NCBI GenBank assembly: GCA_964600575.1
Contig: CAZRJH010000004.1
Span: 6,711 to 70,710 of the forward strand
DNA: 64,000 nucleotides
Direction: 5' to 3'
From: an uncultured Gammaproteobacteria bacterium
GTDB taxonomy: Bacteria; Patescibacteriota; Microgenomatia; UBA8517
Shown here in pieces: positions 35,616-48,693 of this stretch. Below the pieces are notes generated by a model. That model did no database searches and was not told where the DNA came from. It saw nothing but the letters and a program-made list of their open reading frames with translations. The position numbers and the translations under genes are program-made. Each line of letters starts with the position of its first letter. Position 1 is the stretch's first letter.

Positions 35616-37478
35616 ATGACCCGCCCAAAGCTATTTTCACTTTTTGTTGTATTAGGTGCCTTGTTCTTTTTTAATACAAAAGCCGCTTTTGCAATGGCTT
35701 GTGACATTGTTCCCGCAACTGCAACTTTAACTGTAGGACAGAGTGGCACTGCAACTGTCAGCATATCCAATGTAGGTGACGAAATAATTACCTATGCCCG
35801 GTTTATTAATCCGGATTCGGCTTATATGACTTTTACATCCGGCTCTTCAACTGGATTTTCTGCGAGTACGGATGGGCAAACAATCACTTTTTCTGGCGGT
35901 AGCGTCTTGCCTTCGGCAGGAGCAAGTTTTGCCGTTACCGTAACACCTCTGGCTGCCACAAGCGAAGAGTTGCAAATAGACGGATTTGTGTCGGCCGACG
36001 GTGGGGATTATACACAGTGTTATTCCAGTAGCGGTATAACCATTGTAGAACCTAGTGCAACAACTGCTCCTGCGGCAACGCCTACAACAATTACTGTTAC
36101 CAATACCGTTACAACGGTTACTACAACCACAAATACGGTTACGAAAGTTCTTAAAGACGAAACTCCTCCCTCTGTAAAAATACAAACCGAAATCAAAAAA
36201 ATATACGAGGAAGCCCCTTTGATTAAAGCGGTTGCTACAGACGGTAGCGGGATTTCCAAAATTGAATATTCAAACGATGCTGGCGCCAACTGGATACCCG
36301 TGGATATAGAAGACAATATAGGAAACAAAACAGTTACTTTTGGTTTTACTTCTGATATTACTGAAGACGGTGATTATAACCTAAAAATAAGAGCGACAGA
36401 TACTTCCGGAAACAAAACACTCTCTAAAGAGATAAAATTTACAATCGACAGACTCCCGCCTCGTACCGGTCCAATTTTAATAATGACCGGCCCGACAATT
36501 ATTTATCCCGATTCAAGCGGAATAACCAGACTGTTGGCGGGTGTGGATTATAAATTTATAGTGTCGGCCGCGGGCGGGCCCAACAAAATATCCATATTTT
36601 GTAACGATAAGTCGGTTGATTTTACTAAAAATTCTGACTCCGGATTTTGGTATTCTATGGGTAAATTCGATGAGGGTTTGGAATGCACAGCAAAACTAAA
36701 AGCCGAAGACGGAGCGGGCAATGTTCAAGAAGTAGAAAAAGGAAACATAAAAGTGAGCCCTTTGGGTAAATTTGAAAACGGAACAATCACGGTATATTGG
36801 TACGACGATTTTTTGAACAAGTTTATTAAATGGGACGGGGAAGCGTTTGGCCAGGAAAACCCGATAAAAACCGGGAAAAGTGGCGGTTACGGATTTGTCT
36901 TGCCTGCAGGTGGTAAGTACTATTTGGAGGCAAAATCTTTTGGCAAAAAGACGGGTATTTCGAATATTATAACCACAACCGAGACCGTATATATAAACGA
37001 TAATTGGACACTTTCACCCTTTTACACTTTTTGGCAAAAAAATGAGATAAAAAACTTGTCTCCTAAAGCAATCGGTGGCGGTGCTTGGCGACAAACGAAT
37101 ACAGATTTGCCTAATGTGGTTTTATCCGGATTTTCTACCTTGGAAGCTAGGGGAAAATTCACCGTCTTTGGCCTAGTAAGTTCCTGGCATCCACTTGCAA
37201 ACGACTACCTAAAAGTTGCGGATGAGCTTTCAAAAAACAAGGTTACTTTTATTCCCGTTTTGATCCAAGAAAAAGACGCGGCGGCAGGTTTTTTAAAAAG
37301 ACGCGGCGGATATAACCTTGATATTCTAGCCGATCCCGACGGAGAGCTTTTGAAAGATATTTCGGTTAACGGTTTGCCTACAACTTGGATAGTCAATAGA
37401 TTTGGAAAAATAATCCAAGAAAAAACAGGTAGCATTGACGCTCAGGAAATATTAAAAATGTTAACTTCCACGGAATAG
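35616..37478 (+). CDS. Exported protein with Thr-rich linker, Ig-like middle and C-terminal thioredoxin/redoxin-like domain lacking CxxC
   Basis: Signal peptide, a TTAPAATPTTITVTNTVTTVTTTTNTVT linker, and a C-terminal TlpA/ResA-like fold with SSWHPLAN in place of WCxxC. Confidence 0.45.
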   Translation: MTRPKLFSLFVVLGALFFFNTKAAFAMACDIVPATATLTVGQSGTATVSISNVGDEIITYARFINPDSAYMTFTSGSSTGFSASTDGQTITFSGGSVLPSAGASFAVTVTPLAATSEELQIDGFVSADGGDYTQCYSSSGITIVEPSATTAPAATPTTITVTNTVTTVTTTTNTVTKVLKDETPPSVKIQTEIKKIYEEAPLIKAVATDGSGISKIEYSNDAGANWIPVDIEDNIGNKTVTFGFTSDITEDGDYNLKIRATDTSGNKTLSKEIKFTIDRLPPRTGPILIMTGPTIIYPDSSGITRLLAGVDYKFIVSAAGGPNKISIFCNDKSVDFTKNSDSGFWYSMGKFDEGLECTAKLKAEDGAGNVQEVEKGNIKVSPLGKFENGTITVYWYDDFLNKFIKWDGEAFGQENPIKTGKSGGYGFVLPAGGKYYLEAKSFGKKTGISNIITTTETVYINDNWTLSPFYTFWQKNEIKNLSPKAIGGGAWRQTNTDLPNVVLSGFSTLEARGKFTVFGLVSSWHPLANDYLKVADELSKNKVTFIPVLIQEKDAAAGFLKRRGGYNLDILADPDGELLKDISVNGLPTTWIVNRFGKIIQEKTGSIDAQEILKMLTSTE

Positions 37479-37508: not shown

Positions 37509-38990
37509 ATGTGGACTATTTTTTCACTTTCTAATTTATATTTTGCTCTCAATGTCTTTAGTTCCCTGACGCTTTTTGCTGTTGCCTGGCTATATCTTGA
37601 CGCCTACAGGGCGCTCGACCAAAAGAAGGAACTATGGAAGGTTGCCGGGTTTGTGGTATTGGGAACGGCGTTTTTGTTTAGGGGGATGGACTTAACAGGG
37701 ATAGTGGGAACAAATCTAAGCGAATATCAATCGCTTTTTAAAAGCCTTGATTTATATATAAGAACGCTTGGATATTTACTGCTGGTTACAGGACTTTTGG
37801 TGGATCCTTTACAGCCAAAGCCGTCTGTTTCTATGGTATTTTTGATTGCGATCCCTTCTCTTTATTTTATCCAACCATTTTTGGCGGTTGTTGTTGCAAT
37901 CCTTTACCTTAGAAGGGCAAGTCTAGGACTAGAAAGACATATATATCCGCCAGCCTTCGCCTTTTTCTTTTTGGCTGTTTACGAAACCCTTTTTAGCCTT
38001 AATCTTTTTAGAGAAACCACAAACCTTGCTTATTTTAATCTTCTTACTCCGTTTGGAGTGGTCTGGTATTTGCAAATTATATTTTTAGCTTTTGGAATAT
38101 TCTTTTTGGCGAGATGGGTGTTTAGGTATCTCCTTAAACAGTTTGAGTCTCAGCTATTTATGATTCAAATGTCTCTAGTTTTGGCCATTTACCTAATCGT
38201 AACGGTTGGATTTACGGGTCTTTTAATAAACAATCTTAAAAACCAGATTCTCTTAGAACTAACATCTCAGGCCAAAGTCTTGGACTATGTATTCGAAACA
38301 AAACGAGGTCAACTCTTAAGCGATGCAAAATTAATTGCAAGACAGGGAAAGGTGGAAGATGATTTAACTCACGATAGTGTAGTTATTTTTGATTCTGACG
38401 GGGTTGTAACTTTTAGAGCCGAGGATGAAGAGCGTAAAGGCGATTCCGTTTCCGGAGACTCTTTGGTTAAAAAAATAATTGAAGGCAAGGAGGGCTCAAA
38501 TATTGTAGTTAAAGATGGAGCAGCCTCGCCTTTGGTGTATGTGGTATCCGGGGCTCCTTTGATATCAGACGGCAAGGTTACGGGCGGGGTTGTTGTCGGG
38601 GATATTGTCGACAATGCGTATTTGGAGGGTTTTGGTAAATTAACAGGTCTTTCGGCAGCTATCTATGGCGGAAATATTTTAGCGGCAGGGGGAACTTTGG
38701 GTGTTAAAGAAAGCGCCAAGGAGGTAAAAGAAAAAGTTTTGATAAAAGGGGAAACTTTGTCGGTAGAAAGCAGATGGTTAAACAGATCCTATTTGAGCGT
38801 CTACTCACCCATGAAAGATGTCGACGGTAACACTGTCGGGATGTTCTTTGTGGGTAGGCCTTCTGTTGATGTTTTATCACTAGCAAGTAGAACTCTCGAG
38901 GCCGTATTTTTGGGAACGATACTTTTACTGTTTTTGTCTATGATACCGGCGAAACTTATTGCAATTAGCATTTCTAGACAAATCAAATAG
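37509..38990 (+). CDS. Integral membrane sensor-like protein (N-terminal multi-TM bundle, soluble domain, C-terminal TM)
   Basis: 493 aa with about 8 TM helices followed by a domain of about 200 aa and a final TM. No output domain. Confidence 0.45.
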   Translation: MWTIFSLSNLYFALNVFSSLTLFAVAWLYLDAYRALDQKKELWKVAGFVVLGTAFLFRGMDLTGIVGTNLSEYQSLFKSLDLYIRTLGYLLLVTGLLVDPLQPKPSVSMVFLIAIPSLYFIQPFLAVVVAILYLRRASLGLERHIYPPAFAFFFLAVYETLFSLNLFRETTNLAYFNLLTPFGVVWYLQIIFLAFGIFFLARWVFRYLLKQFESQLFMIQMSLVLAIYLIVTVGFTGLLINNLKNQILLELTSQAKVLDYVFETKRGQLLSDAKLIARQGKVEDDLTHDSVVIFDSDGVVTFRAEDEERKGDSVSGDSLVKKIIEGKEGSNIVVKDGAASPLVYVVSGAPLISDGKVTGGVVVGDIVDNAYLEGFGKLTGLSAAIYGGNILAAGGTLGVKESAKEVKEKVLIKGETLSVESRWLNRSYLSVYSPMKDVDGNTVGMFFVGRPSVDVLSLASRTLEAVFLGTILLLFLSMIPAKLIAISISRQIK

Positions 38991-38991
38991 T

Positions 38992-39432
38992 ATGGAAGAC
39001 TCTGATATATCAAAAAAAGATAAATTAATATTCGGACTTGGTACTTTTGTTTTTGTTTTGGTTTTGGCGACCTCCGGCTGGCTCTTTTATTTTTATAATT
39101 TTGAATTTAATAAACAAAAAGCAAATGCGCCCGTTTCTCAAGAAACGGTGACAGAAACAAAAGAAAAGACGGTAGTGCAGGATTATAAAAATACCAATAT
39201 CGAGATATTAAACGGTTCGGGTAAACCCGGTGTTGCGGCCAAACTTGCCGAGAAGCTAAAAGCTAAAGGCTATACGGATATTGCCACGGGCAATTATGAC
39301 TCGGTGGTAATAGGTAACCTGCTTTTTGCTCCAAAAGAGATAGTTGGTTTTATAAATGATCTTAAAGATTCAGGTTTTGATGATTATAAATTTGCAAGCG
39401 CTTCGGCCATAAAAATTGTAATCGGAAAATGA
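38992..39432 (+). CDS. LytR_C (LytR/CpsA/Psr C-terminal) domain protein, membrane-anchored
   Basis: N-terminal TM segment, then IEILNGSGKPGVAAKLAEKLKAKGYTDIATGN...VVIGNLLFAP.... I chose the start at the ATG just after the upstream stop. Confidence 0.55.
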   Translation: MEDSDISKKDKLIFGLGTFVFVLVLATSGWLFYFYNFEFNKQKANAPVSQETVTETKEKTVVQDYKNTNIEILNGSGKPGVAAKLAEKLKAKGYTDIATGNYDSVVIGNLLFAPKEIVGFINDLKDSGFDDYKFASASAIKIVIGK

Positions 39433-39445
39433 CAACTTACTAAAT

Positions 39446-40555
39446 ATGAAAAATTGGTCTATACAAAAAAGATTCAGTTTTACCTTTGCAGTTACAGGAC
39501 TCTTTTTGGTTGTCGGGCTTTTGGTGGCTATTCAAATCTCGCTCTGGTCAAGGTTTAATAAAGTAGACGAGTTGACTGTTGCAGATAATTTGGCGAGGGT
39601 AGAAAAAACATATCAATATTTTTTAGATTCATTTCATGCGAAAGTTGCAGACTGGGGGCAGTGGGATGACACATATGAATTTGTTTCTGACTTAAACAGT
39701 GACTACATAGAAAGTAACTTGGTAGAGGCAACGCTTGTTAATTTAAAAACAGATGAACTTTTGTTTTTTAATTCCGATAAGGAGTTGGTCTACGCAACTG
39801 CCTCGTCTGCAATCTTTAAAAAAGAAAGTAACTTTCCCGGGGATGTGGAGTCTATTTTTTTGGAACACTCTGAAATATGGGATTCGATCCAAAAAAACGG
39901 ACACTTTTCTGGTCTCGTTAAAACGGAAGACGGAGTTTTAATTTACTCTGCTAGCCAGATTGTTAAAAGTGATGCTACCGGTCCGGCAAGAGGTGTGATT
40001 GTTTTTGGCAGATATATTGGTAAGTGGTTAACCGACGAATTAAGCAACATTTCCCGAATTCCCGTTTATCTTGATACCCAAAATACAGGCAAGAAAACTA
40101 AAGATGTTATTTATACAAACTACTCAATTCCGGTGCACGGAAGTGATAGTGTTGATCTTGTATTTGAAACAAAAAGAGACATTAGAAATCAGGTAGTTAG
40201 CGGTATGTATATTTTACTCACTGCAACAATACTCCTGGTTACGATATCTATTGCCTTTAACTATTACTCGATCTACAACTATATTATTCTTGATTTGCAG
40301 AACTTAAAGAGAGAGCTTTCGGTTATCACAGAGCGCGAAGGAAATGGCCGAATGAAAAGAGGTGGAATAACCTCTGATATAGACGAGATAAGAGACGATC
40401 TTAATTATCTTTTGGAAAATTTGGATAAGGCAAAAATGTCTCATCAACAAAAAGCGGAAGAGCTTAAGATGTTAAATGATTTAATGGTTGATCGAGAAAT
40501 AAAAATGACCGAACTAAAAGCTGTAATTGCGGATCTCAAAAAGAAAATATTATAA
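39446..40555 (+). CDS. Membrane-anchored periplasmic sensor-domain protein (CHASE4-like pattern, unverified) with C-terminal coiled coil
   Basis: N-terminal TM, an extracytoplasmic domain of about 230 aa, a second TM and a cytoplasmic helix of about 80 aa. No kinase or output domain. Confidence 0.4.
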   Translation: MKNWSIQKRFSFTFAVTGLFLVVGLLVAIQISLWSRFNKVDELTVADNLARVEKTYQYFLDSFHAKVADWGQWDDTYEFVSDLNSDYIESNLVEATLVNLKTDELLFFNSDKELVYATASSAIFKKESNFPGDVESIFLEHSEIWDSIQKNGHFSGLVKTEDGVLIYSASQIVKSDATGPARGVIVFGRYIGKWLTDELSNISRIPVYLDTQNTGKKTKDVIYTNYSIPVHGSDSVDLVFETKRDIRNQVVSGMYILLTATILLVTISIAFNYYSIYNYIILDLQNLKRELSVITEREGNGRMKRGGITSDIDEIRDDLNYLLENLDKAKMSHQQKAEELKMLNDLMVDREIKMTELKAVIADLKKKIL

Positions 40556-40560
40556 AAAAC

Positions 40561-41670
40561 ATGATTTTTAACGCCGAAATATCAAACCGTCGGATAATTG
40601 GAAACGGTACATGGGAAATCACTTTTACACACACAAGGGATGATTTTTATTTTAATGCCGGGCAATATATATGGCTCATTTCTCCTACGGCACGAAAAGC
40701 GTTTTCAATTACATCCTCTTCGGCAGACCCGCTTAAGTTGCAGGTTGTTTTTAGAGAAAATCCTGGAAGCAATCTAAAGAAATTTATCCTTGATGGAGAA
40801 AATAGAAATCTCAAGATCAAAGGCGCGTGCGGTTTTCTGCGCTCTCCCGCAAAAGGAGATAAAACTGTTTACATTGTAGGCGGAGTCGGAATTGCCCCTG
40901 TTCTCAGTATTGTCAGAAGCCTCAGGGATAAAAACGAATCCCGTGATATCGAGATAATTTTTGCAAACCACTCCTCTCAACACCAGTTCTATGTTGATGA
41001 GTTACAAGCCTACCCATTTGTTAGATTGACAAACATAGTAGGAAGATTCACTGGAAACGAGTTTTCCCCCAAACCCGATTCAAAATATTATATTTTTGGA
41101 AAACAGGATTTTGTGGACTCAGTTTACAAAATTCTTTGCGGTAAGGGAGTTTTGGAGAACAATATATTTTTTGAAGAAAATTATCCAAGCAGGATTCCTT
41201 TTGAGTTAAATTTGGCGGAGGATACCTATTTTAAACATGCCGTGGACCAGTCGATTAACCACATTGTAATGACCGACATCAACGGAAGGATTTGTTATGC
41301 AAACCAGGCTGCAACGGAAACAACAGGTTATTCTTTTGAAGAAATGAAAGGGCAAACTCCAAGACTCTGGGGAGGACTTATGCCCGAGTCGGTTTATAAG
41401 GAGTTTTGGAAGACTCTGCTTGTCGACAAAAAACCTTTTAGGGGAGAGTTTAAAAATCAGCGTAAGAACGGGGATTTGTATGACGCGCTAGCAATGATTT
41501 CTCCGATTACAAATAAAAATAGTGATATAGTCGGGTTTTTGGGAATAGAGCAGAACATTACGCAGACAAAAGCTTCAGAAGAAAACTTGAAAAGACTTAC
41601 GGAGCTCATGGTTGGCAGGGAGCTGGAAATGATTGAGCTAAAAAAACAACTAAAAAATGGAAAACAATAA
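40561..41670 (+). CDS. FNR-like FAD/NAD(P)-binding reductase domain fused to a PAS domain
   Basis: RKAFSITSS (RxYS-type FAD motif) and GGVGIAPVLS (GGxGxxP), followed by a PAS fold (INHIVMTDINGRICYANQAATETTGYSFEEMKGQ...) and a C-terminal coiled coil. Confidence 0.5.
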   Translation: MIFNAEISNRRIIGNGTWEITFTHTRDDFYFNAGQYIWLISPTARKAFSITSSSADPLKLQVVFRENPGSNLKKFILDGENRNLKIKGACGFLRSPAKGDKTVYIVGGVGIAPVLSIVRSLRDKNESRDIEIIFANHSSQHQFYVDELQAYPFVRLTNIVGRFTGNEFSPKPDSKYYIFGKQDFVDSVYKILCGKGVLENNIFFEENYPSRIPFELNLAEDTYFKHAVDQSINHIVMTDINGRICYANQAATETTGYSFEEMKGQTPRLWGGLMPESVYKEFWKTLLVDKKPFRGEFKNQRKNGDLYDALAMISPITNKNSDIVGFLGIEQNITQTKASEENLKRLTELMVGRELEMIELKKQLKNGKQ

Positions 41671-43399
41671 TTGGCGGAAAACATTACTGTCATCGATTCT
41701 TGTAATCGGATCGACCACTTTAACAATCTTCTCTATTGTTTATTTTAGTCGCGGACATTACATGCTTGGTATTATCGAAGGCGTTGCGTCATTGGGTATG
41801 ATCTGTGCGATATTTTTATCGAAAAAGTATTTTCAGGCGGCAGGAATGCTGGGTTGGTTTGGTGTATTTGTGGTGCTTACCACAATCCTGTTTACTGGTG
41901 GAATTGAGGGAAGTGGAATTGTCTGGTGGGGACTTTTACCCGTTATAAACTTTGCTATATTCGGGCTTTCGGGCGGGTTGGTAACCACAATCTTTTCGGT
42001 GGTGGCTTTGCTGTCGCTTACTTTATTGAAGTCTTTTGGCTATGCCGACACTTTTTTCGAGGGAGGTATTCTGAGGCAGGCGGCCGTTGTGGTATCGGTA
42101 ATAGGATTCATTATGTACTACTTCGAAAAAATCGCAGGGGAAGCCAGAAACGAAGCTTTCGCAAAATCAAAGCTTTTGCAGGAAACCAATCTAAAAGTGG
42201 AAGAAAGCTTGCACAACCTTTCGGAAGAAAAAATTAATCAGGACAGAATCAGAAAAGCCGTTTTAAATATTTTGGAAGATACCAAGCAGGCAGATATTGA
42301 TCTCAAAAAGGAAAAGGAGGGTATCGAAGATAAAGTTCTTATTAGAACCAAAGAACTCAGCGAAGAAAAATCTAAATTATTGGCATCTATAAACGCGTTT
42401 GCAAAAGGCTTGGTTATGGTAGACACCGAAGGTAAAGTTATTCTTTCTAACTCACGGCTTTCTCAAATACTGGGTGGTAGCGATGAAGTTTGGGATTTTC
42501 AGAAAATCAAAAATGCTATTTCCGGTATTTACGATATTGGTTCGGCTTACAAGACGGTTCTCGAAACTAAAAAAAACATAACGGCAAAAGAGTTGCAGTA
42601 TAAAGACAAATACATAGACCTTCATGTTTCTCCTGTAACCAACAACAAGACTCTTATTGGTGTGTTGATAACAATTGGTGATATAACCGAAGAGAAGATA
42701 GTTGACAGATCAAGAGATGAATTTTTCTCTATTGCCAGCCACGAACTTAGAACCCCGCTTACGACAATTAGGGGCAATACCGCCTTAATTCAGCAGGTGT
42801 ATCTTAACAAATTTAATGATGCCGATTTAACAGAAATGGTTAGTGACATCCATGAATCTGCCATTAGACTTATCGGGATAGTTAACGACTTTTTGAATGT
42901 AAGCAGGCTGGAAATGGGGAGAATGCAGTTTAAAACAGAAGATTTTGACATTATTGCTTTAGCTAAAAAAACAGCCGAAGAAATTGACGACAAAAACGAT
43001 AAAGTTGATATAAAAATTTTGGCAACAAGCCCAGCGTTAAAAGTTTTTGCGGACGAAGGAAAGACGAAAGAAGTTCTTGTGAATTTAATCGGGAACGGGG
43101 TTAAGTATACCGGCCAGGGAACAGTCGAGGTATCTTTTAAACAAGAAGGGAGTAAAACCAATGTATATATTAGCGATAACGGTAAAGGTATAGCACCCGA
43201 AAATCAAAAGCTTTTGTTCCATAAATTCCAGCAAGCGGAAGACAGTTTACTGACTCGTGATACTACCAAAAGTACAGGGTTAGGGCTTTACATAAGCAAG
43301 ATGATGTTGGAAGGAATGTCGGGTAAGCTCTGGCTTGAAAAGTCCGAATTTGGAAAAGGATCTGTTTTTGCATTTAGTTTACCTACCTCAAAAGCCTAA
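41657..43399 (+). CDS. Sensor histidine kinase (multi-TM N-terminus, coiled coil, PAS, HisKA, HATPase_c)
   Basis: H-box SHELRTPLTTI, N-box LIGNGVKYT and G-boxes DNGKGI and GLGLYISK. Confidence 0.85.
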   Translation: MENNNWRKTLLSSILVIGSTTLTIFSIVYFSRGHYMLGIIEGVASLGMICAIFLSKKYFQAAGMLGWFGVFVVLTTILFTGGIEGSGIVWWGLLPVINFAIFGLSGGLVTTIFSVVALLSLTLLKSFGYADTFFEGGILRQAAVVVSVIGFIMYYFEKIAGEARNEAFAKSKLLQETNLKVEESLHNLSEEKINQDRIRKAVLNILEDTKQADIDLKKEKEGIEDKVLIRTKELSEEKSKLLASINAFAKGLVMVDTEGKVILSNSRLSQILGGSDEVWDFQKIKNAISGIYDIGSAYKTVLETKKNITAKELQYKDKYIDLHVSPVTNNKTLIGVLITIGDITEEKIVDRSRDEFFSIASHELRTPLTTIRGNTALIQQVYLNKFNDADLTEMVSDIHESAIRLIGIVNDFLNVSRLEMGRMQFKTEDFDIIALAKKTAEEIDDKNDKVDIKILATSPALKVFADEGKTKEVLVNLIGNGVKYTGQGTVEVSFKQEGSKTNVYISDNGKGIAPENQKLLFHKFQQAEDSLLTRDTTKSTGLGLYISKMMLEGMSGKLWLEKSEFGKGSVFAFSLPTSKA

Positions 43400-43439
43400 G
43401 TATTGTAATTTGATACATATATCTGCTATATAATAAATT

Positions 43440-43838
43440 ATGGCAAAAGTTTTAATTGTTGAAGACGACCCCTTGATAAGCAGGATGTATCAAAAGATAT
43501 TTAAGTTCGAAGGCTACGAAGTAGAAACCGCCGCCGACGGTGAGGAAGGGGTAGATAAAGTTAGAACGGCAAAGCCTACAATTGTCATTTTAGATGTCAT
43601 GATGCCTAAAATGAACGGACTCCAGGTGCTTGCAAAACTAAAGTCGGATCCTGAAACCAAAAAAATCCCCGTTGTAATGCTTACCAACTTGGCAGGACAA
43701 TCCGATGCCGAGAAAGCGCTGTCTATGGGTGCTATCAAATATATAATCAAGTCCGAGTATGAGCCTAAACAGGTAACAGACATGATCAAAGAAGTTTTGG
43801 CGGGTTATACCAGGGATAGCATTCCCGGGTCGAATTAA
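43440..43838 (+). CDS. Response regulator, stand-alone receiver domain
   Basis: 132 aa with the motifs VEDD, VILDVMMPKMNG and a conserved Lys. Confidence 0.85.
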   Translation: MAKVLIVEDDPLISRMYQKIFKFEGYEVETAADGEEGVDKVRTAKPTIVILDVMMPKMNGLQVLAKLKSDPETKKIPVVMLTNLAGQSDAEKALSMGAIKYIIKSEYEPKQVTDMIKEVLAGYTRDSIPGSN

Positions 43839-43839
43839 A

Positions 43840-44226
43840 ATGTACAATCATTTACTTTACTTCTCTTATTGGTTGGTAAACGCATTGGTAATTTATTTGT
43901 TTAACAATTTCTTTGGATCGGATGTTGTTTTGGGTAACTGGAAATTTGGAGTAGTGGAAGCAAGCTTGTATGCATCATTTTGGGTGACTTTTGTTATTTG
44001 GTGTTTTTGGGACTTTGCCATTGCCAAAGGTTTACAATTTGATTCTCCTGTTGTGGTTTTTGGATATTTCTGGGTCGTTAACCTCTTTGCTTTCTGGCTT
44101 GTGTCCAGATTCTCAAGTTATTTTGGCTTTGGAGTAACAAGTTATTTTTGGCCTGCAGTGATCGCTTTGGTTGCCCATGCACTCCAAAGATGGGTAAGGA
44201 GATTTTTTGTAAGTGCTTCGGTTTAG
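43840..44226 (+). CDS. Small polytopic membrane protein, hypothetical
   Basis: 128 aa with four hydrophobic helices. Confidence 0.45.
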   Translation: MYNHLLYFSYWLVNALVIYLFNNFFGSDVVLGNWKFGVVEASLYASFWVTFVIWCFWDFAIAKGLQFDSPVVVFGYFWVVNLFAFWLVSRFSSYFGFGVTSYFWPAVIALVAHALQRWVRRFFVSASV

Positions 44227-44785: not shown

Positions 44786-45406
44786 TTAGAAGACATTGTC
44801 AAAGTAGTCGTAGCTGAGCCCGGCTCTACCTGTCCAGTTTGATGAATAGCTGGAGGTTCCTTTGGTGTATCTATAGGCACCGGACGAGTCCTCTTTCATT
44901 ATGTACCAGTTTCCAGCTTTGTTCATATAGCCATAATATGCAGGAGAAGAATCGTCTAAATCGGTGATATTGTAGCCGTCGGTGGGGTGTTTTTCAGCCG
45001 GATCAATCTTGTTGCCCGCGGTATCTTTGATAGAGACTGTACCTGGGCCAGGAACGCTACCAAAGAAGGCAGCTTCGGCTCTTTTGGTAAAAAGGGAAAA
45101 CAAGAACAAGGTGAGGCCTGCTGTCCCTATGAGTTTTAGAAAAGCTCTTCTGTCGGTGTCGACCCCTTCTTTTTTAAGCTTTTCAACCTCCGGCTCTTTC
45201 TTGCTTTGAAGGACGACGACTTCCACTTCTTCGGGAGCTTTAATAGCTTTGCTTTTTCTGGGGTATATTTTTACGCCAAAGTAAAAAAGGAGCGGGAAAA
45301 AAGCCGAAGCAACGGCAAGTTGTGTCGGGTTTTGGGCAGTAAGCATCCCGGCAATTACTATCAGGCTTACTATGACAAAGTTGTAATATACGAGCAGTTT
45401 TTTCAT
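44786..45406 (-). CDS. Membrane-anchored exported protein with internal twin-arginine-like motif (DRRAFLKLIG...AEA)
   Basis: N-terminal 2-TM domain shared with the two downstream paralogues, then a charged linker, TDRRAFLK, a hydrophobic stretch, AEAAFFG and a Tyr/Ser/Gly-rich domain. Confidence 0.5.
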   Translation of the reverse strand: MKKLLVYYNFVIVSLIVIAGMLTAQNPTQLAVASAFFPLLFYFGVKIYPRKSKAIKAPEEVEVVVLQSKKEPEVEKLKKEGVDTDRRAFLKLIGTAGLTLFLFSLFTKRAEAAFFGSVPGPGTVSIKDTAGNKIDPAEKHPTDGYNITDLDDSSPAYYGYMNKAGNWYIMKEDSSGAYRYTKGTSSYSSNWTGRAGLSYDYFDNVF

Positions 45407-45428
45407 TTATTGATTTTAATATATAAAA

Positions 45429-46013
45429 CTAAAGTTTCGTCTCGTCTATATATTTAAACGAGATATAACCAAATACACCCTCCGAAACAATCACCTCATA
45501 CCATTCGCCGTCTTTTTGAGTATATTCAAATATTTGACCGTCTTTGGCTGTTCCAAGTTTTTCCGAGTAAATTGACGGTTTGGACCTGATATTCACCTCG
45601 GGTACTCCGTCGTTTATTTTAATAGTTAATGTTTTATTGGGCATAGGTGTTTCTTTAGCTTTTGGCATAACAAGGCCGTTTGTTTCGGCTATTTCTGGAG
45701 CAGGATTGGGTTTTGGTTGAAAAAATACATTTTTTACACCCACGCCTACAAATATTAAGAAAAACAAACTCGCCCATAAAACATCCTTTGTTCTAACTTG
45801 GGGAAAAGTATCGGGGTTGGGAATAAAGTTAGGGTTAAGTATCGATCTTAAGTTCCCAAAAATTTCTAGAACAAAATATGCAACTACGGGTAAAAATAAT
45901 GTTGCAAATATCAAAGGTCCTCCTGATTGAGTTGTAAGGATTGTAGAGATTGCAATAAAAAAAGATGCCGCTGCGGAGTAAAAAAATAATGCTTTGGGTA
46001 GGAGATTTTTCAT
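45429..46013 (-). CDS. Membrane-anchored protein with C-terminal SH3b-like domain
   Basis: Conserved N-terminal 2-TM module (FFYS...LP...YF) and a C-terminal ...GQIFEYTQKDGEWYEVIVSEGVFGYISFKYI. Confidence 0.5.
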   Translation of the reverse strand: MKNLLPKALFFYSAAASFFIAISTILTTQSGGPLIFATLFLPVVAYFVLEIFGNLRSILNPNFIPNPDTFPQVRTKDVLWASLFFLIFVGVGVKNVFFQPKPNPAPEIAETNGLVMPKAKETPMPNKTLTIKINDGVPEVNIRSKPSIYSEKLGTAKDGQIFEYTQKDGEWYEVIVSEGVFGYISFKYIDETKL

Positions 46014-46050
46014 TCGACCCTTATAATTTACCAGATGAGGCGGGTAGATG

Positions 46051-46686
46051 TCACTCCAACTCGTTTACATCTTTGGAGTTAACCCAACCAGATTTGTTCT
46101 CGGAAACGGCTACTTTGTACCAGCCTTCTGCCTTTTCTATAAACGGATAGTTAACACCTTTTATTATCGTGTCCAGTTTTTGGGAATTGGGGTTTTTATC
46201 CAGGTATATGTATCCGGACTCAACTCCTTGTTTAAGTGTAATCCTTGTTCCGCCTTCTTCTACCACTTTGCCGATTATAATATCTGCAACCGTTTCACCT
46301 TCGGGGTCGGGGGTTTCCAACGGTTCCGGAGTTTTATTTGTGGCGTTAAGTTTTTGAACAAGCTCTTCATTTTTTCTTAAGGCCTCCGAAAGTTGTGATT
46401 TTAGGGTCGAGTTATATCTGGAGGGGTCAAGTTGCGCCGCTAATTTATAGCCGTATATACCCAAGAAAGATAAAACTGCCAAAGAAATAATGAATCGTAC
46501 CGACCATCTTTCAAAATTTGTTCCACTGGGATTGGTGAGCTTGATCCAAAAATAAAACAACATGGGTAGCAGAAGTACGCCCGAAATAAAGTTCAGAGGT
46601 TGTGGGGAAAATAAACCAAAAGATATAAAAAAGACAGTTACTGCAACTATCGAATAAAAGAATAAAAACTTTTCCAACTTATGCAT
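46051..46686 (-). CDS. Membrane-anchored protein with C-terminal SH3b-like domain (paralogue)
   Basis: Same N-terminal 2-TM module. C-terminal GWYKVAVSENKSGWVNSKDV. Confidence 0.5.
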   Translation of the reverse strand: MHKLEKFLFFYSIVAVTVFFISFGLFSPQPLNFISGVLLLPMLFYFWIKLTNPSGTNFERWSVRFIISLAVLSFLGIYGYKLAAQLDPSRYNSTLKSQLSEALRKNEELVQKLNATNKTPEPLETPDPEGETVADIIIGKVVEEGGTRITLKQGVESGYIYLDKNPNSQKLDTIIKGVNYPFIEKAEGWYKVAVSENKSGWVNSKDVNELE

Positions 46687-46716: not shown

Positions 46717-48693
46717 TTAAGGTTGTGCAGGGGGATTGGCTTCTTGAGGTAAAACAATAGGAGGTTTTACGTTTGATGGGGCCACTGTAGGAGGTGGAGT
46801 AAGATTGTCGGAACCTTCTGCTGTTTTTGCTGCAGGTTTGTTCTTCTCGATCTGCTCTAGGCCCGACTTTGCAAGTTTTTCATCGTCCGATCCTGGCTTA
46901 ACTAAAGATAGTACTTTATTCATTTCTGTAATGGCCTTGTCAAAATCCTTCTTTTGGTTGTAAGCCAAAGCCAAGTTGTAATGAGCATTTGCCAGATCGG
47001 GTTTAGCAGTTACTGCAAGGCCAAAAGCGTTTATTGCGTCGTCATATTTGCCGAGTGCGTAGTAAACTCCACCTTGGGCAATTCTAAGGTTGGGGGAAAT
47101 AGGATCCAGTGCAATTGCTTGGTTAAAGCTTACTATTGTAAAGTTGTCCGCACCTTGAGCAAAAGGAATAATAGATTGGTAAGTTCTCGCTAAAAGTTCC
47201 CAGTTTGCGGATCTTTGAGGATTGAGGGCGACTGCTGCTTTAGCTTCTGCAATTGACTGTTGAACCAGTTGTGCAATTGTATTTTTGTCTGCATCTGTAA
47301 TATCTTTCTTTTGAGCCAAACCGCGGGCCAAGGCAAGATCCAGCTGATCAAAAGTTGCGTGATATCTGTCAACTTGAGAGTTTGTGCTAATTGCAGCCCT
47401 AAGCTCATCATATGCAAGTTTGGCGTTATTGGACAAGATGGCATCTATGGCTTTTTTGTAATGAAGTTCACCCTTAAAAACTTTTACTCCGACAACTGTA
47501 GGGTAGACTGTTAGTAAGACTAATATCAAAGAAACAACTATTGCCGGGATCTTGGATGCAAACTCTCCGCCGTTTCTTACTGCCGTAGCCGAAAGATTCA
47601 TTGTTACTTCGTGGTCTTGTGTGTTTAGAGCGGCAATCAGGAAAAACAAAACCAATACAACTATGTTTGCGGGAAGTGTTAAAAGTGCCAATGCAACCAA
47701 TATTAAGGATAGTGAATAACCTGCATCAGTTTTTATAGAAGAAGGGTTGAAATTTCTAATATTTTTGAATACCCCCTTAACCATAGTAAATAATGCAAAT
47801 ACAAAGGCGGCGAGTCCCAATATGCCAACCTCGGTTACTAAAGTAAGTACATAACTGCTTGCAGAGAAGAATCTATTGGCCCACAGCTCGGTTGAGTTGT
47901 AAGACAAGGGAAGATATTTGGTGAAAGCACTAAGATAGTTTGCAGGACCGATTCCAAAAAGCGGACTTGCTTTAAGTGTATCGATAGCAACAGACCAACT
48001 TGTTTGCATATCTACAATTACGGGTGCGCCTGGTCTGCCCGGTAGCATTTGATATATAGAGAGTATCGAAGAAAGCGCAACTATTGCGGATGCCAAAAAG
48101 AAGAACATTTTTCTGAATTTGTCTTTCTCGGAAAAAGCCATCGAAACACCGATGGGTAAAAGTGATACCAATAATATTACTTCGGGCAACTTGCCGCCTA
48201 CGGCGGAAAAATTAGCGTCTCTTAGAACTGCAGGTAGTTGGGGAATGCTTGCTAAAAGTCCCGTAAATGCAAATATAGAAATTAAAGAGGCGAGTACGCC
48301 TGATAAAAATAATGCCAAGGCATAGTTTTCTTTTTCTCCCTTAAAAACTGTTTTAGCTAAAAAGTAAACCAAAAAGCCGCCAACAATTATGGTAACGGTA
48401 CCGGGAATGGCAAAAGCCTCCATTTTGTTGGGAGTCCTTAAAACCCCCGAAACCACATACGCAAGAGCAAGTAGTAAGAGGGGAAGGTCTGATACGGAAA
48501 CATTAAAAGTAATCTTTCCGTCGTTGAAAATCTTTACTGCCCAAATAACCAAAGACAAAAGTACTACAAAAGAAAGAAGCATAACTTTAGGTAGATCAAA
48601 GAAGCTTGCAAGATTCGTTAACAAAAAAGAAGGGAATAAAACTACAAAACCGAGGAGTAAATATTTTAAAGTTTGATTTAAAGTTTTAGTCAT
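46717..48693 (-). CDS. O-antigen ligase (Wzy_C)-like polytopic membrane protein with C-terminal TPR repeats
   Basis: About 12 TM helices with a large loop, then TPR units (AHYNLALAYNQKKDFDKAITEMNKVL etc.). Confidence 0.55.
   Translation of the reverse strand: MTKTLNQTLKYLLLGFVVLFPSFLLTNLASFFDLPKVMLLSFVVLLSLVIWAVKIFNDGKITFNVSVSDLPLLLLALAYVVSGVLRTPNKMEAFAIPGTVTIIVGGFLVYFLAKTVFKGEKENYALALFLSGVLASLISIFAFTGLLASIPQLPAVLRDANFSAVGGKLPEVILLVSLLPIGVSMAFSEKDKFRKMFFFLASAIVALSSILSIYQMLPGRPGAPVIVDMQTSWSVAIDTLKASPLFGIGPANYLSAFTKYLPLSYNSTELWANRFFSASSYVLTLVTEVGILGLAAFVFALFTMVKGVFKNIRNFNPSSIKTDAGYSLSLILVALALLTLPANIVVLVLFFLIAALNTQDHEVTMNLSATAVRNGGEFASKIPAIVVSLILVLLTVYPTVVGVKVFKGELHYKKAIDAILSNNAKLAYDELRAAISTNSQVDRYHATFDQLDLALARGLAQKKDITDADKNTIAQLVQQSIAEAKAAVALNPQRSANWELLARTYQSIIPFAQGADNFTIVSFNQAIALDPISPNLRIAQGGVYYALGKYDDAINAFGLAVTAKPDLANAHYNLALAYNQKKDFDKAITEMNKVLSLVKPGSDDEKLAKSGLEQIEKNKPAAKTAEGSDNLTPPPTVAPSNVKPPIVLPQEANPPAQP

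Follow-up and report, generated by a model that had tools for sequence, protein, structure and literature searches.

How does a sensor protein that carries no output domain hand on its signal? The question is raised by two adjacent genes in the window (the whole 64,000-nucleotide stretch of DNA that was analysed), whose products end in similar helices and which lie upstream of a histidine kinase and a stand-alone receiver. A sequence-only reading had seen here a multi-input two-component system, and that proposal is examined below.

A conserved same-strand gene block

All the open reading frames were found at the coordinates given here in an ORF check of the window, and the genes described lie on the + strand. 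The block opens with a gene (35616..37478) for an Ig-like secreted or surface protein with a C-terminal redoxin-like region (Pfam Redoxin, E = 1.8e-6; weak Big_13), whose counterpart in the syntenic loci L001 and L003 is an fn3/Big protein at the same position; whether it belongs to the signalling unit is uncertain. The LytR_C protein and the membrane sensor that had been placed upstream of the cluster were both found. The sensor (37509..38990) is a multi-TM protein with an extracytoplasmic double-Cache region (Pfam dCache_3, E = 1.2e-10; sCache_3_3, E = 1e-10), which stops directly after its last TM helix, without the terminal helix motif, and is a membrane sensor without cytoplasmic output; the other is a small TM-anchored LytR_C-domain protein (38959..39432; Pfam LytR_C, E = 1.7e-8). 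The sensor gene is kept at the same position, and the LytR_C gene is syntenic, in L001–L004.

After the two helix-bearing proteins and the kinase comes a stand-alone, REC-only response regulator (43440..43838; Pfam Response_reg, E = 4.7e-27), presumably the phosphoacceptor of the system; in most related loci the REC gene likewise comes after the kinase. A conserved 128-aa multi-TM protein (43840..44226), for which no Pfam family was matched, closes the block, and a 129-aa gene occupies its position in L001, L003 and L004. The whole operon is syntenic in L001–L004, at about 50% identity. The multi-input two-component operon first proposed is supported, and on balance we favour a single operon of this kind at 37.5–44.2 kb.

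Two output-less sensors with a common terminal helix

Carrier 1 (39446..40555), named, like carrier 2, for the helix at its C-terminus, is composed of a first TM segment, a periplasmic CHASE4 domain (Pfam, E = 3.9e-31), a second TM segment, a HAMP-like helix-loop-helix and the terminal helix. Its TM/HAMP region matches NCBIfam DgcN (E = 1.3e-5), its AlphaFold2 model has helices at residues 245–300 and 308–368, and no output domain was found with Pfam or NCBIfam. The terminal helix module (40445..40552; aa 334–369; E = 2e-11 against the helix profile) is an Asp-type variant, with the core motif LMVDREIKMTELK at aa 346–358 (nt 40481–40519); 11 residues remain between the end of the motif and the stop codon.

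Carrier 2 (40561..41670) consists of an FNR-type reductase (aa 1–215), a flavin-type PAS domain (aa 223–332) and the terminal helix, as assigned by Pfam, NCBIfam and structure matches. The first part shows the FNR motifs KAFS (flavin) and GGVGIAP (NAD(P)H) and a FEENYP end, with N-terminal matches to NAD_binding_1 (E = 2.5e-6) and, over residues 3–150, to the NCBIfam MmoC reductase (E = 2.2e-15). In the AlphaFold2 model (pLDDT 86.5), this region was matched by Foldseek to flavohemoglobin 1GVH (E = 8e-15) and to Fre 1QFJ (target TM-score 0.75), and residues 3–215 match T4moF 4WQM. The FNR-like region both matches flavoprotein-reductase profiles and folds as a flavoprotein reductase. The FNR-reductase/PAS fusion had been called unusual, and it is real and rare: 5.8 billion proteins yielded about 50 clusters, practically all of them from candidate-phyla (Patescibacteria-type) bacteria. 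The PAS domain (E = 5.6e-14, Pfam/NCBIfam) is nearest to those of FAD-binding MmoS (3EWK, 4e-17), NifL (2GJ3, 6.6e-14) and Aer (8DIK, 7e-12), and its invariant Asn299 corresponds to the conserved flavin-contacting Asn (Aer N85). No output domain was found by Pfam or NCBIfam here either. The terminal helix module (41569..41667; aa 337–369; E = 1.3e-9 against the helix profile) has its core motif LMVGRELEMIELK at aa 349–361 (nt 41605–41643), which leaves 8 residues to the stop codon.

We infer that carrier 2 is a cytoplasmic redox sensor binding flavin and NAD(P)H. Three observations speak against a redox reading: Lys takes the place of the Arg in canonical R-x-[YF]-S; the pocket of the PAS domain contains Pro267 and Glu330 and has neither the His and Arg of Aer/MmoS nor the Cys of LOV domains; and the FNR and PAS-helix parts are split from each other in L003 and L004.

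Relatives of carrier 1 of 557–567 aa and relatives of carrier 2 of about 600 aa have HisKA-HATPase where the carriers have the terminal helix, the DHp standing at its place in these CHASE4-HK and FNR-PAS-HK fusions. Because both sensor modules occur fused to HisKA-HATPase, the carriers are kinase-less versions of sensor kinases.

Specificity and spread of the terminal helix

The close relationship of the two C-terminal segments, noticed from the letters alone, was confirmed. Their C-terminal 50-mers gave a local BLOSUM62 score of 67, versus shuffle means of 25.3 ± 4.9 (composition) and 25.4 ± 4.9 (heptad-position-preserving), and since neither kind of shuffle attained that score in 5000 trials, generic heptad composition does not account for the likeness. 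The profile of the helix, about 35 residues long with the consensus ELE+[FM]N.LMV[GD]RELKM.ELKKEI, matches 8,895 protein clusters (representatives at 50% identity, E ≤ 1e-3), and in the best 150 of these matches the helix is nearly always at the extreme C-terminus. A GTDB sample covered 153 species genomes, which belong to many classes of Patescibacteria, to Bacteroidales, to Gamma- and Deltaproteobacteria, to Delongbacteria and to Omnitrophota. Within it, the motif ends 7–31 aa ahead of the stop codon in 107 of 109 carriers.

The sensor parts are diverse (in 99 carriers: PAS 62, HAMP 18, GAF 11, CHASE4 9, 5TMR-LYT 6, dCache 5, CHASE 3, and further domains). None of the 25 Pfam families listed for them is an output family, and none of 110 carriers has a kinase core. 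Two to four carriers occur together in 21 of 80 loci, and helix identity was higher within one operon (0.47 vs. 0.36), a difference that may stem from lineage. The terminal helix common to both carriers is a genuine and specific module, and the arrangement in the window is not local but one case of a very large, widespread class.

The partner kinase and its gene order

The partner histidine kinase (41657..43399), whose first 14 nt overlap the end of the carrier 2 gene, has a multi-TM region that is MASE6-like (26.8 bits, slightly under the 27.4 cutoff), a long coiled coil, PAS, HisKA and HATPase_c (Pfam, NCBIfam), with the HisKA motif SHELRTPL, which includes His362, at aa 361–368. The idea that the carrier helices might align with its coiled coil or DHp region failed: alignment scores were at or below the shuffle means, hhalign gave probabilities of 0.5% and 2%, and no resemblance was seen. 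What the kinase bears is another helix motif, K.A.LN.LED, which co-occurs with the carrier helix and reads RIRKAVLNILEDTKQADIDLKKEKEG in the window (42245..42358; motif aa 197–222), with LNILED at aa 203–208 (nt 42263–42280). It lies ahead of the last PAS domain, 158 residues upstream of His362, and is followed after 26 residues by an ERT-like IRTKEL.

By regular expression, K.A.LN.LED was found in 34 of 44 partner kinases, compared with 6 of the 26 other kinases (Fisher p = 1.4e-5); by HMM it was found in 40/44 partner kinases, 0/109 carriers and 2/845 other genes, and of the six other kinases with an HMM match, five lie at +3 to +5. Counted by locus, the LN.LED type is present in 40 of the 44 that have a kinase downstream. 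Conversely, when the kinase motif alone served as seed, all 7 loci with upstream DNA had an adjacent carrier, a small sample of about 5 independent lineages. Neither the terminal helix motif nor the kinase motif had a match in Pfam, NCBIfam, PDB or the literature.

Gene order was studied in 80 unrelated genomic loci, with 45–50 carrier/kinase operon pairs, and was polar, from carrier(s) to kinase to receiver. The kinase was at +1 in 28 of 78 loci (36%) and at +2 in 12 of 73, compared with 3–8% of loci at −1 to −4, and overlaps of start and stop codons were frequent. In about 45% of carrier loci, no kinase lies among the first five genes downstream, so that either coupling is optional or the partner genes are located elsewhere. 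Comparative genomics strongly links the carrier helix proteins to the kinase gene immediately downstream, pointing to a sensor plug-in route to two-component systems that is undescribed so far.

Register and packing of the two motifs

The distance from the PAS DIT to the carrier Gly/Asp was 20+7n residues in 141 of 155 carriers, and that from DIT to the phospho-acceptor His was 20+7n in 48 of 60 PAS-kinases; counted from ERT(R), both the Gly and the His distances peak at 20. The Asn of LN.LED falls at 20+7n from ERT in 10/10 cases and from DIT in 5/6. In the window, N(IT)-to-Gly in carrier 2, whose N-I-T is the DIT-equivalent of its PAS, and D(IT)-to-His in the kinase are both 20. In both motifs the hydrophobic face spreads past the a/d positions, and it does so at one and the same level, where invariant opposite charges are found (R+1 and K+4 in the carrier, E+3 and D+4 in the kinase). 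Complementarity is restricted to these invariant positions; taken over their whole length, the two helices have uncorrelated charge profiles (r about 0).

Discussion

The account that we find somewhat probable is that the carrier helices dock onto the kinase stalk and signal in trans. The terminal helix would be a portable C-terminal 'transmitter' module, prolonging the coiled coil that leaves PAS or HAMP in the register of DHp helix 1, with Gly or Asp replacing the phosphorylatable His and with no second helix or ATPase domain after it. Dimers of this helix would dock laterally, in register, on the K.A.LN.LED segment of the kinase's coiled-coil stalk, just before its last PAS-DHp unit, for which reason RIRKAVLNILEDTKQADIDLKKEKEG is proposed as the docking site. 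Ligand- or redox-driven rotation or scissoring of helices in the accessory sensors could then be transmitted to the kinase, which would phosphorylate the REC-only regulator. That the carriers dock onto the kinase or onto each other, that the two helices are in contact, and in which direction regulation runs are points that we infer. If docking is true, extra sensors are plugged into a two-component system via matching helix motifs.

A rather unlikely alternative is that the helix is a homo-oligomerisation cap (dimer or tetramer) stabilising the sensor, with any signal reaching the kinase via PAS-PAS or transmembrane contacts and with LN.LED as a kinase-subfamily hallmark. Outside its core the helix is indeed a canonical a/d coiled coil, AlphaFold2 predicts it as one straight helix, the extra hydrophobic positions would equally fit carrier-carrier tetramerisation, and both the frequent tandem carriers and those without a kinase nearby agree with a cap. 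However, a cap would need neither the R, E, M, E and K that are invariant over thousands of clusters and many phyla nor the DHp register, and it leaves aside a kinase motif in the same register, with matching hydrophobic widening and opposite invariant charges, as well as the fact that each motif predicts the presence of the other in both directions.

The Gly/Asp in the exact His register relative to DIT and ERT, the DHp at the helix place in fused relatives and, on direct reading of the letters, an upstream ELE.[FM] resembling the ELE.F before many H-boxes would suit a His-less mimic of DHp helix 1, entering or competing with the kinase's DHp four-helix bundle, the carriers being signal-dependent anti-kinases like RetS on GacS or Sda on KinA. 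We give this joint reading little credence, as profile comparison shows no homology to DHp helix 1 and LN.LED in partner kinases, 150–170 residues upstream of the His, is left unexplained. That the output-less proteins are decaying or fissioned sensor-kinase fragments without concerted function, their ends alike by common descent of linkers, is very improbable and largely refuted by the conservation data: although both sensor modules occur fused to HisKA-HATPase and the FNR part itself is split in two loci, the helix differs from DHp sequence, keeps invariant residues in 8,895 clusters and its place near the stop codon, and is shared by the window's two proteins despite unrelated sensor domains, while the operon is conserved and partner kinases have complete N-terminal sensor regions of their own.

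The carriers and their helix can be compared with several known systems. The S-helix is a sensor-to-output connector with an E-R-T signature, and terminal or solo versions are not described in that work (Anantharaman, Balaji & Aravind 2006, PMC1592074). Both elements are parallel coiled coils leaving PAS, HAMP or GAF modules, in which a polar Arg is conserved at a 'd' position of the core, and many carriers have a bona fide ERT.EL S-helix motif in phase with the Gly, 13, 20 or 27 residues ahead of it; the carrier element differs in being G/D-R-E plus LKM.ELK, at the C-terminus with nothing after it. With DHp (HisKA) helix 1 it shares position and heptad register relative to DIT and ERT (20+7n), and it directly replaces DHp in the kinase-less FNR-PAS and CHASE4 members, but it lacks the phospho-acceptor His, helix 2, the CA domain and any Pfam HisKA match (hhalign probability 0.5%).

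NifL, MmoS and Aer are flavin-PAS redox sensors (PMC9668731, PMC12540587). Like NifL and short LOV proteins, carrier 2 has no enzymatic output and must act via protein contacts. Unlike NifL, MmoS and Aer, it has a complete FNR-type NAD(P)H-flavin reductase module joined to its N-terminal side, a predicted built-in reductase that could reduce the sensor flavin. In its pocket, Pro267 and Glu330 take the places that are occupied by His and Arg in Aer/MmoS and by Cys and Gln in LOV domains.

In RetS-GacS, Sda/KipI-KinA, LuxP-LuxQ and YycHI-WalK, contact with a third protein modulates a histidine kinase, and this, as proposed for the carriers, widens the input range of the two-component system. To our knowledge, these auxiliary regulators and kinase-kinase heteromers are idiosyncratic pairs, none with a shared, portable C-terminal helix borne by many types of sensor and a matching kinase-stalk motif. 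Auxiliary regulators of histidine kinases have been reviewed (PMC8534201, PMC12471899). Multi-input control through a common C-terminal module that joins sensors to one signalling hub is also a likeness to the stressosome. There, the RsbR paralogues and YtvA of Bacillus subtilis combine varied N-terminal input domains with one conserved C-terminal module, a globular STAS domain, in a large icosahedral complex controlling a serine kinase, whereas the carriers use a single helix of about 35 residues linked to two-component histidine kinases.

Organization of the signalling operon

The signalling genes of the window form a dense block on a single strand, running from 35.6 or 37.5 kb to 44.2 kb, and the ORF positions claimed in the sequence-only reading proved exact in every case. 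Domain scans assigned to the forward strand a multi-TM protein with a double-Cache sensor that ends past its last TM helix (37509-38990), a LytR_C protein (38959-39432), a protein with a CHASE4 domain (E = 3.9e-31) between two TM helices followed by a HAMP-like hairpin (39446-40555), and a protein composed of an FNR-like reductase module and a PAS domain (40561-41670), the last two without output domain. These are followed by a histidine kinase with a MASE6-like TM region, a coiled coil, PAS, HisKA and HATPase_c (41657-43399), a REC-only protein (43440-43838) and a conserved 128-aa membrane protein (43840-44226). The intergenic distances in the block are +13, +5, -14, +40 and +1 nt, and no convincing terminator was found inside the operon, where both promoter and terminator scans were uninformative. 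The entire block is syntenic in four metagenomic contigs (L001-L004), with around 50% protein identity. The kinase and the receiver are of the classical two-component type, with HisKA (E = 9.7e-16), HATPase_c (E = 8.4e-21) and REC (E = 4.7e-27) matches and an H-box, SHELRTPL, at residues 361-368 of the kinase.

The TM-dCache protein has neither a cytoplasmic domain nor the terminal helix described below, in such a way that any signal from it to the kinase would have to pass inside the membrane, for instance by way of the MASE6-like region of the kinase, and would constitute a third, different input in the operon.

Beyond the block, three tandem paralogous genes of 206, 194 and 211 aa are encoded on the reverse strand (44786-46686), each with a TM region at the N-terminus and, at the C-terminus, a domain that is annotated as SH3_3 in syntenic loci, and after them comes an O-antigen-ligase-like/TPR membrane protein (46717-48693). 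In L003 and L004, too, the trio and the O-antigen-ligase-like gene adjoin the signalling operon. A metagenome-assembled genome labelled 'uncultured Gammaproteobacteria' encodes the CHASE4-helix protein, FNR-PAS, the kinase with its stalk motif (see below) and REC in the same order as in the window (L005:5996-10010), which points to a cassette that spread horizontally as a whole or else to a bin with the wrong label.

A conserved C-terminal helix in sensors without output domain

The CHASE4 and FNR-PAS proteins were proposed from the sequence to share a terminal helix, and this similarity turned out to be specific: their C-terminal 50-mers align with a BLOSUM62 score of 67, a value reached by none of 5000 shuffles of either kind, with means of 25.3 ± 4.9 when composition was preserved and 25.4 ± 4.9 when heptad positions were also kept. 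A resemblance of either helix to the coiled coil or the DHp of the kinase was not borne out, the alignment scores being equal to or lower than the shuffle means. Sensors without output domain that end in this helix are called carriers here.

The proteins listed by a word-indexed homologue search with the helix profile did not exceed 86 aa, and many were fragments at contig ends; this search shows breadth and not architecture, so an exhaustive search against 1.84 billion cluster representatives was used. The profile of 36 columns matched 8,895 proteins at E ≤ 1e-3, and among the best 150 of these the helix lies almost always a few residues from the C-terminus, with the consensus ELE+[FM]N.LMV[GD]RELKM[IV]ELKKEI. 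It is at times tandemly duplicated, and internal copies are rare. A strict DNA-pattern scan of the GTDB species representatives located the helix in 153 genomes from many classes of Patescibacteria, Bacteroidales, Gamma- and Deltaproteobacteria, Delongbacteria and Omnitrophota.

The 13-residue core of the helix stops 7-31 residues ahead of the stop codon in 107 of 109 carrier ORFs, and a kinase core was found in none of 110 carriers. The Pfam modules detected on 99 carriers were PAS (62), HAMP (18), GAF (11), CHASE4 (9), 5TMR-LYT (6), dCache (5), REC (4), CHASE (3), HTCS-type Reg_prop/Y_Y_Y (3) and FNR (3), all of them of input or transmitter type. No model of Pfam (2025 copy) or NCBIfam (2026) covers the terminal helix, and a PDB search gave no meaningful match, the best one (E = 0.029) being a chance RE.DM.ELK match in HisF. 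Searching the literature for the motif strings gave only irrelevant matches, and what is searchable there on output-less sensors, accessory proteins and the S-helix held no account of a class defined by this terminal helix.

Several variants of the helix were detected. A subfamily with the sequence ..FNKLFVDREFRIKELKDRIKELE, also strictly C-terminal, adjoins canonical carriers (L064:3-1979, L025:2664-4076) and escaped the first regular expression. Many carriers from Bacteroidetes and from archaea (ANME-2) carry a conserved extension of the helix, ..ELKKEVN.LL...G.p.[RK]Y.I.. (homologous proteins P0061, P0067, P0122 and P0139; L066:2785-3882), that is missing from Patescibacteria carriers, those of the window included. 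In P0181 (3391 aa), the RELKM.ELKKEI half of the profile was matched in 36 separate stretches (E = 1.6e-24), and this is probably a repetitive coiled-coil protein made of that unit. Bacteroidales carriers of around 1,090 aa (L029:7149-10412, L059:7149-10415, L066:3866-7138) have a periplasmic Reg_prop/Y_Y_Y sensor, as hybrid two-component systems typically do, with the terminal helix in place of HK-REC-AraC, and lie 3-4 in a row upstream of a hybrid kinase.

A CheR-type methyltransferase gene lies immediately downstream of a carrier in three loci, which recalls the RsbM-RsbK pair of Bacillus cereus, where RsbM reportedly methylates the signaling helix of RsbK (PMC4574943); in the terminal helix, methylation could occur at the conserved Glu residues.

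The CHASE4 protein

In the CHASE4 protein (39446-40555), the Pfam match covers residues 60-207, and its relatives include short forms ending in the helix as well as CHASE4-HisKA-HATPase forms of 557-567 aa. In the AlphaFold2 model, built on 8 sequences (pLDDT 76), the alpha/beta domain of CHASE4 is flanked by TM1 and by TM2, which extends as far as residue 300; a disordered connector (301-307) and a helix (308-368) follow. The model thus presents the C-terminus as a predicted HAMP-like hairpin, the second helix of which continues without a break into the terminal motif.

The FNR-PAS protein

Homologues of the FNR-PAS protein (40561-41670) carry only Patescibacteria and Candidatus Uhrbacteria as organism names, and exist as around 25 short forms (365-400 aa) with the carrier helix at the C-terminus and around 15 long forms (~600 aa) with HisKA-HATPase after the PAS domain. 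When aligned, DHp helix 1 of the long forms and the terminal helix of the short forms share their starting point. The AlphaFold2 model, from a 27-sequence alignment (pLDDT 86.5, pTM 0.76), places a beta-barrel at residues 1-95, a Rossmann-like domain at 100-205 and PAS at 223-332, and ends in a single unbroken helix (334-368). The FNR-like identity assigned from the sequence alone was upheld by this two-domain reductase fold of the FAD_binding_6/NAD_binding_1 superfamily, for which Foldseek found the flavohemoglobin reductase 1GVH (E = 8e-15) and Fre 1QFJ (target TM-score 0.75), with further matches to BenC (1KRH), T4moF (4WQM), GcoB and the SpNOX dehydrogenase domain. The pyridine-nucleotide motif G-G-x-G-x-x-P is present as GGVGIAP at residues 107-113 and does not vary within the family. 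The flavin motif R-x-[YF]-S, which is RPFS in Fre, reads likewise R-A-F-S in most homologues and K-A-F-S at residues 46-49 in the window, where Lys for Arg is a minor deviation.

The nearest solved relatives of the PAS domain are FAD-binding, namely MmoS (3EWK, 4e-17), NifL (2GJ3, 6.6e-14) and Aer (8DIK, 7e-12), with LOV domains next. The pocket was compared through the residue roles described in PMC9668731 (N85, H53 and R115 of Aer; Cys and Gln of LOV domains). The flavin-contacting Asn is kept as Asn299, the counterpart of Aer N85, whereas Pro267 occupies the position of the Aer His and the LOV Cys, and Glu330 that of the Aer Arg and the LOV Gln, the three residues being invariant in the family. 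Pro267 and Glu330 rule out both a LOV photoreceptor and a typical Aer/MmoS pocket. The most economical reading is that of a putative flavin redox sensor, in which the NAD(P)H-dependent reductase module of the protein itself would reduce the putative flavin. In vitro, NADH can reduce the NifL protein of A. vinelandii by way of FNR-type enzymes, Hmp among them.

In one lineage, sampled twice (L003:9110-10211, L004:2575-3676), the FNR-PAS gene appears as two ORFs of 125 aa and 254 aa, the latter with PAS and helix, reflecting either a real frameshift or fission with loss of the reductase module or a recurrent assembly error.

Carriers frequently precede kinases with a stalk motif

The position of the histidine kinase relative to the carrier was examined in 80 unrelated loci: it lies at +1 in 36%, at +2 in 16%, and at each of the positions from -1 to -4 in 3-8%. 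The next gene after the kinase is usually a receiver, giving the pattern C(C)KR, and the carrier stop frequently overlaps with the kinase start. Two to four carriers are present in 21 of the 80 loci, so the pair in the window is typical.

These partner kinases have a helix motif of their own, ..tK.A.LN[ILV][LM]ED..eLe.qLK.EK.., usually located 150-170 residues upstream of the H-box His and before the last PAS. With a regular expression, the LN.LED motif was found in 34 of 44 partner kinases versus 6 of 26 other kinases from the same loci (Fisher p = 1.4e-5). An HMM raised the recovery to 40 of 44 partner kinases, with no match in 109 carriers and 2 in 845 other genes; among the "other" kinases positive with the HMM, five of six lie at +3 to +5, also downstream of carriers. 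A carrier followed by an LN.LED kinase was found in 40 of 78 independent loci. The window has this arrangement too, with carrier cores at residues 346-358 and 349-361 of the two sensors and then, on the same strand, a kinase (41657-43399) with RIRKAVLNILEDTKQ at residues 197-211, in which LNILED spans residues 203-208, 158 residues before His362.

The association was also followed in reverse, by recovering metagenome loci seeded only on [KRQ]xA[VMI]LN[LI]LED, of which at least nine were confirmed. Among these listed loci, all seven that include upstream DNA have an adjacent carrier, directly upstream and on the same strand in six and convergent in one; they correspond to about five independent lineages, and L088 has two carriers. 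Literature searches with the kinase-motif strings retrieved only irrelevant matches.

Multi-carrier operons often combine an Asp-type helix (MVDRE or MM[IV]DRE, frequently in the first carrier) with Gly-type ones (MVGRE), as seen in the window, L006, L013, L021, L029, L064 and L066. By inspection, this pairing within operons shows no clear excess over random expectation; the stoichiometry of a hetero-oligomer could be its cause.

Shared register of carriers and kinases

In 155 non-redundant carriers, the distance from the Asp of the PAS motif D[IV][TS] to the Gly/Asp of MV[GD]RE is 27 residues in 118 cases, 20 in 17, 34 in 4 and 41 in 2, in such a way that 141 of the 155 follow a 20+7n spacing. 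The corresponding spacing to the phospho-acceptor His in the PAS-kinases of that data set is 20 in 43 cases, 27 in 3 and 34 in 2. Counting from the Arg of the S-helix ERT, the carrier Gly and the kinase His both peak at +20, and the Asn of LN.LED falls at 20+7n from ERT in 10 of 10 and from DIT in 5 of 6 cases. In the window, the spacing is 20 both from N(IT) to Gly in the FNR-PAS protein and from D(IT) to His in the kinase. The shared 20+7n spacings place the terminal helix in the same coiled-coil phase as DHp helix 1, with no His of its own.

The two helices are equivalent in position and register despite no detected homology. An origin of the terminal helix from a degenerate DHp helix 1 found no support, since its comparison by hhalign with the DHp region in fused relatives had a probability of 0.5%. 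The terminal helix lacks the HisKA/DHp hallmark, having Gly or Asp at the His-equivalent register, Pfam gave no HisKA match in either window carrier, and AlphaFold2 models it as a single helix and not a hairpin in both. The carrier helix and the LN.LED helix of the kinase were rejected as mutual homologues (hhalign probability 2%).

When the carrier and kinase motifs are aligned by register, the hydrophobic face of both widens past a/d at an equal level (L-M-V...L.M-I in the carrier, A-m-L.L-L in the kinase), where invariant charges are opposite, R+1 and K+4 in the carrier and E+3 and D+4 in the kinase. The charge profiles of the two helices have a correlation of ~0 overall, and the complementarity is restricted to the invariant positions. 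Widened faces and opposite charges are what lateral, in-register packing of two coiled coils as a four-helix bundle would require, and from these patterns we infer such a packing. Two other explanations for the same helix remain: it may be a mere oligomerisation cap, or the carriers may act as anti-kinases that mimic the DHp with which they share position and register. That the carriers are decayed kinase fragments is very unlikely, as the conservation data count against it.

Discussion

The sequence-only reading had proposed a multi-input two-component system in which accessory sensors dock onto the kinase or each other, and the best-supported reading of the window operon is a three-tier system of helix-ended sensors, a stalk-motif kinase and a REC-only regulator. 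In the first tier, the CHASE4/HAMP sensor would respond to an extracytoplasmic cue and FNR-PAS to redox or NAD(P)H, both ending in a portable transmitter helix; in the second, the kinase would add its own membrane (MASE6-like) and PAS inputs; the REC-only regulator would form the third. The strongest support is comparative, namely the breadth of the helix, its terminal position, the absent outputs, the polar gene order, the reciprocal co-occurrence of the motifs and the shared register. Physical docking of the carrier helix on the stalk, which the sequence patterns suggest, is the weakest link.

As a general proposal, the terminal helix and K.A.LN.LED would act as plug and socket that attach separate sensors to the coiled-coil stalk of a histidine kinase in trans, with FNR-PAS as a flavin redox input that is self-contained and driven by NAD(P)H; we put this forward tentatively, its chances being in our judgement slightly short of even. 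The system would be used by bacteria and some archaea, with interchangeable, separately encoded sensor modules (PAS, GAF, HAMP, CHASE4, Cache, 5TMR-LYT, HTCS-type propellers, FNR-PAS), and this would amount to a signaling helix that acts in trans and builds a hetero-oligomeric helical bundle. If true, this would be an unrecognised and very widespread way of integrating multiple inputs, with around 9,000 protein clusters at 50% identity.

Many bacterial genomes encode numerous "sensor-only" PAS, GAF and HAMP proteins whose outputs are unknown, and how kinases integrate multiple signals is a long-standing question. If the helix docks on the stalk motif, thousands of orphan sensors could be assigned to specific kinases by sequence alone, two-component systems would gain a simple, modular and engineerable way of adding inputs, and the almost uncharacterised signalling of Patescibacteria would be opened to experiment. 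The FNR-PAS fusion is a compact candidate sensor of the NAD(P)H/NAD(P)+ ratio. The two motifs, the fixed register and the operon rule lead to directly testable predictions.

Neither auxiliary sensors of histidine kinases nor signaling helices of the coiled-coil type are new as concepts. The terminal-helix sensor class and the cognate stalk motif are absent from Pfam (2025 copy), NCBIfam (2026), the PDB and the searchable literature, and there is a substantial chance that the pair represents a general, previously unrecognised docking code. A close comparison is with the S-helix, a coiled coil of ~40 residues with E-R-T at heptad positions c-d-e, where the carrier core has G/D-R-E: the Arg at 'd' is kept, but not the Glu and the Thr. 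Whereas the S-helix sits between an N-terminal sensor and a C-terminal output, the carrier helix is itself terminal (107/109), in proteins with a kinase core in 0/110 cases.
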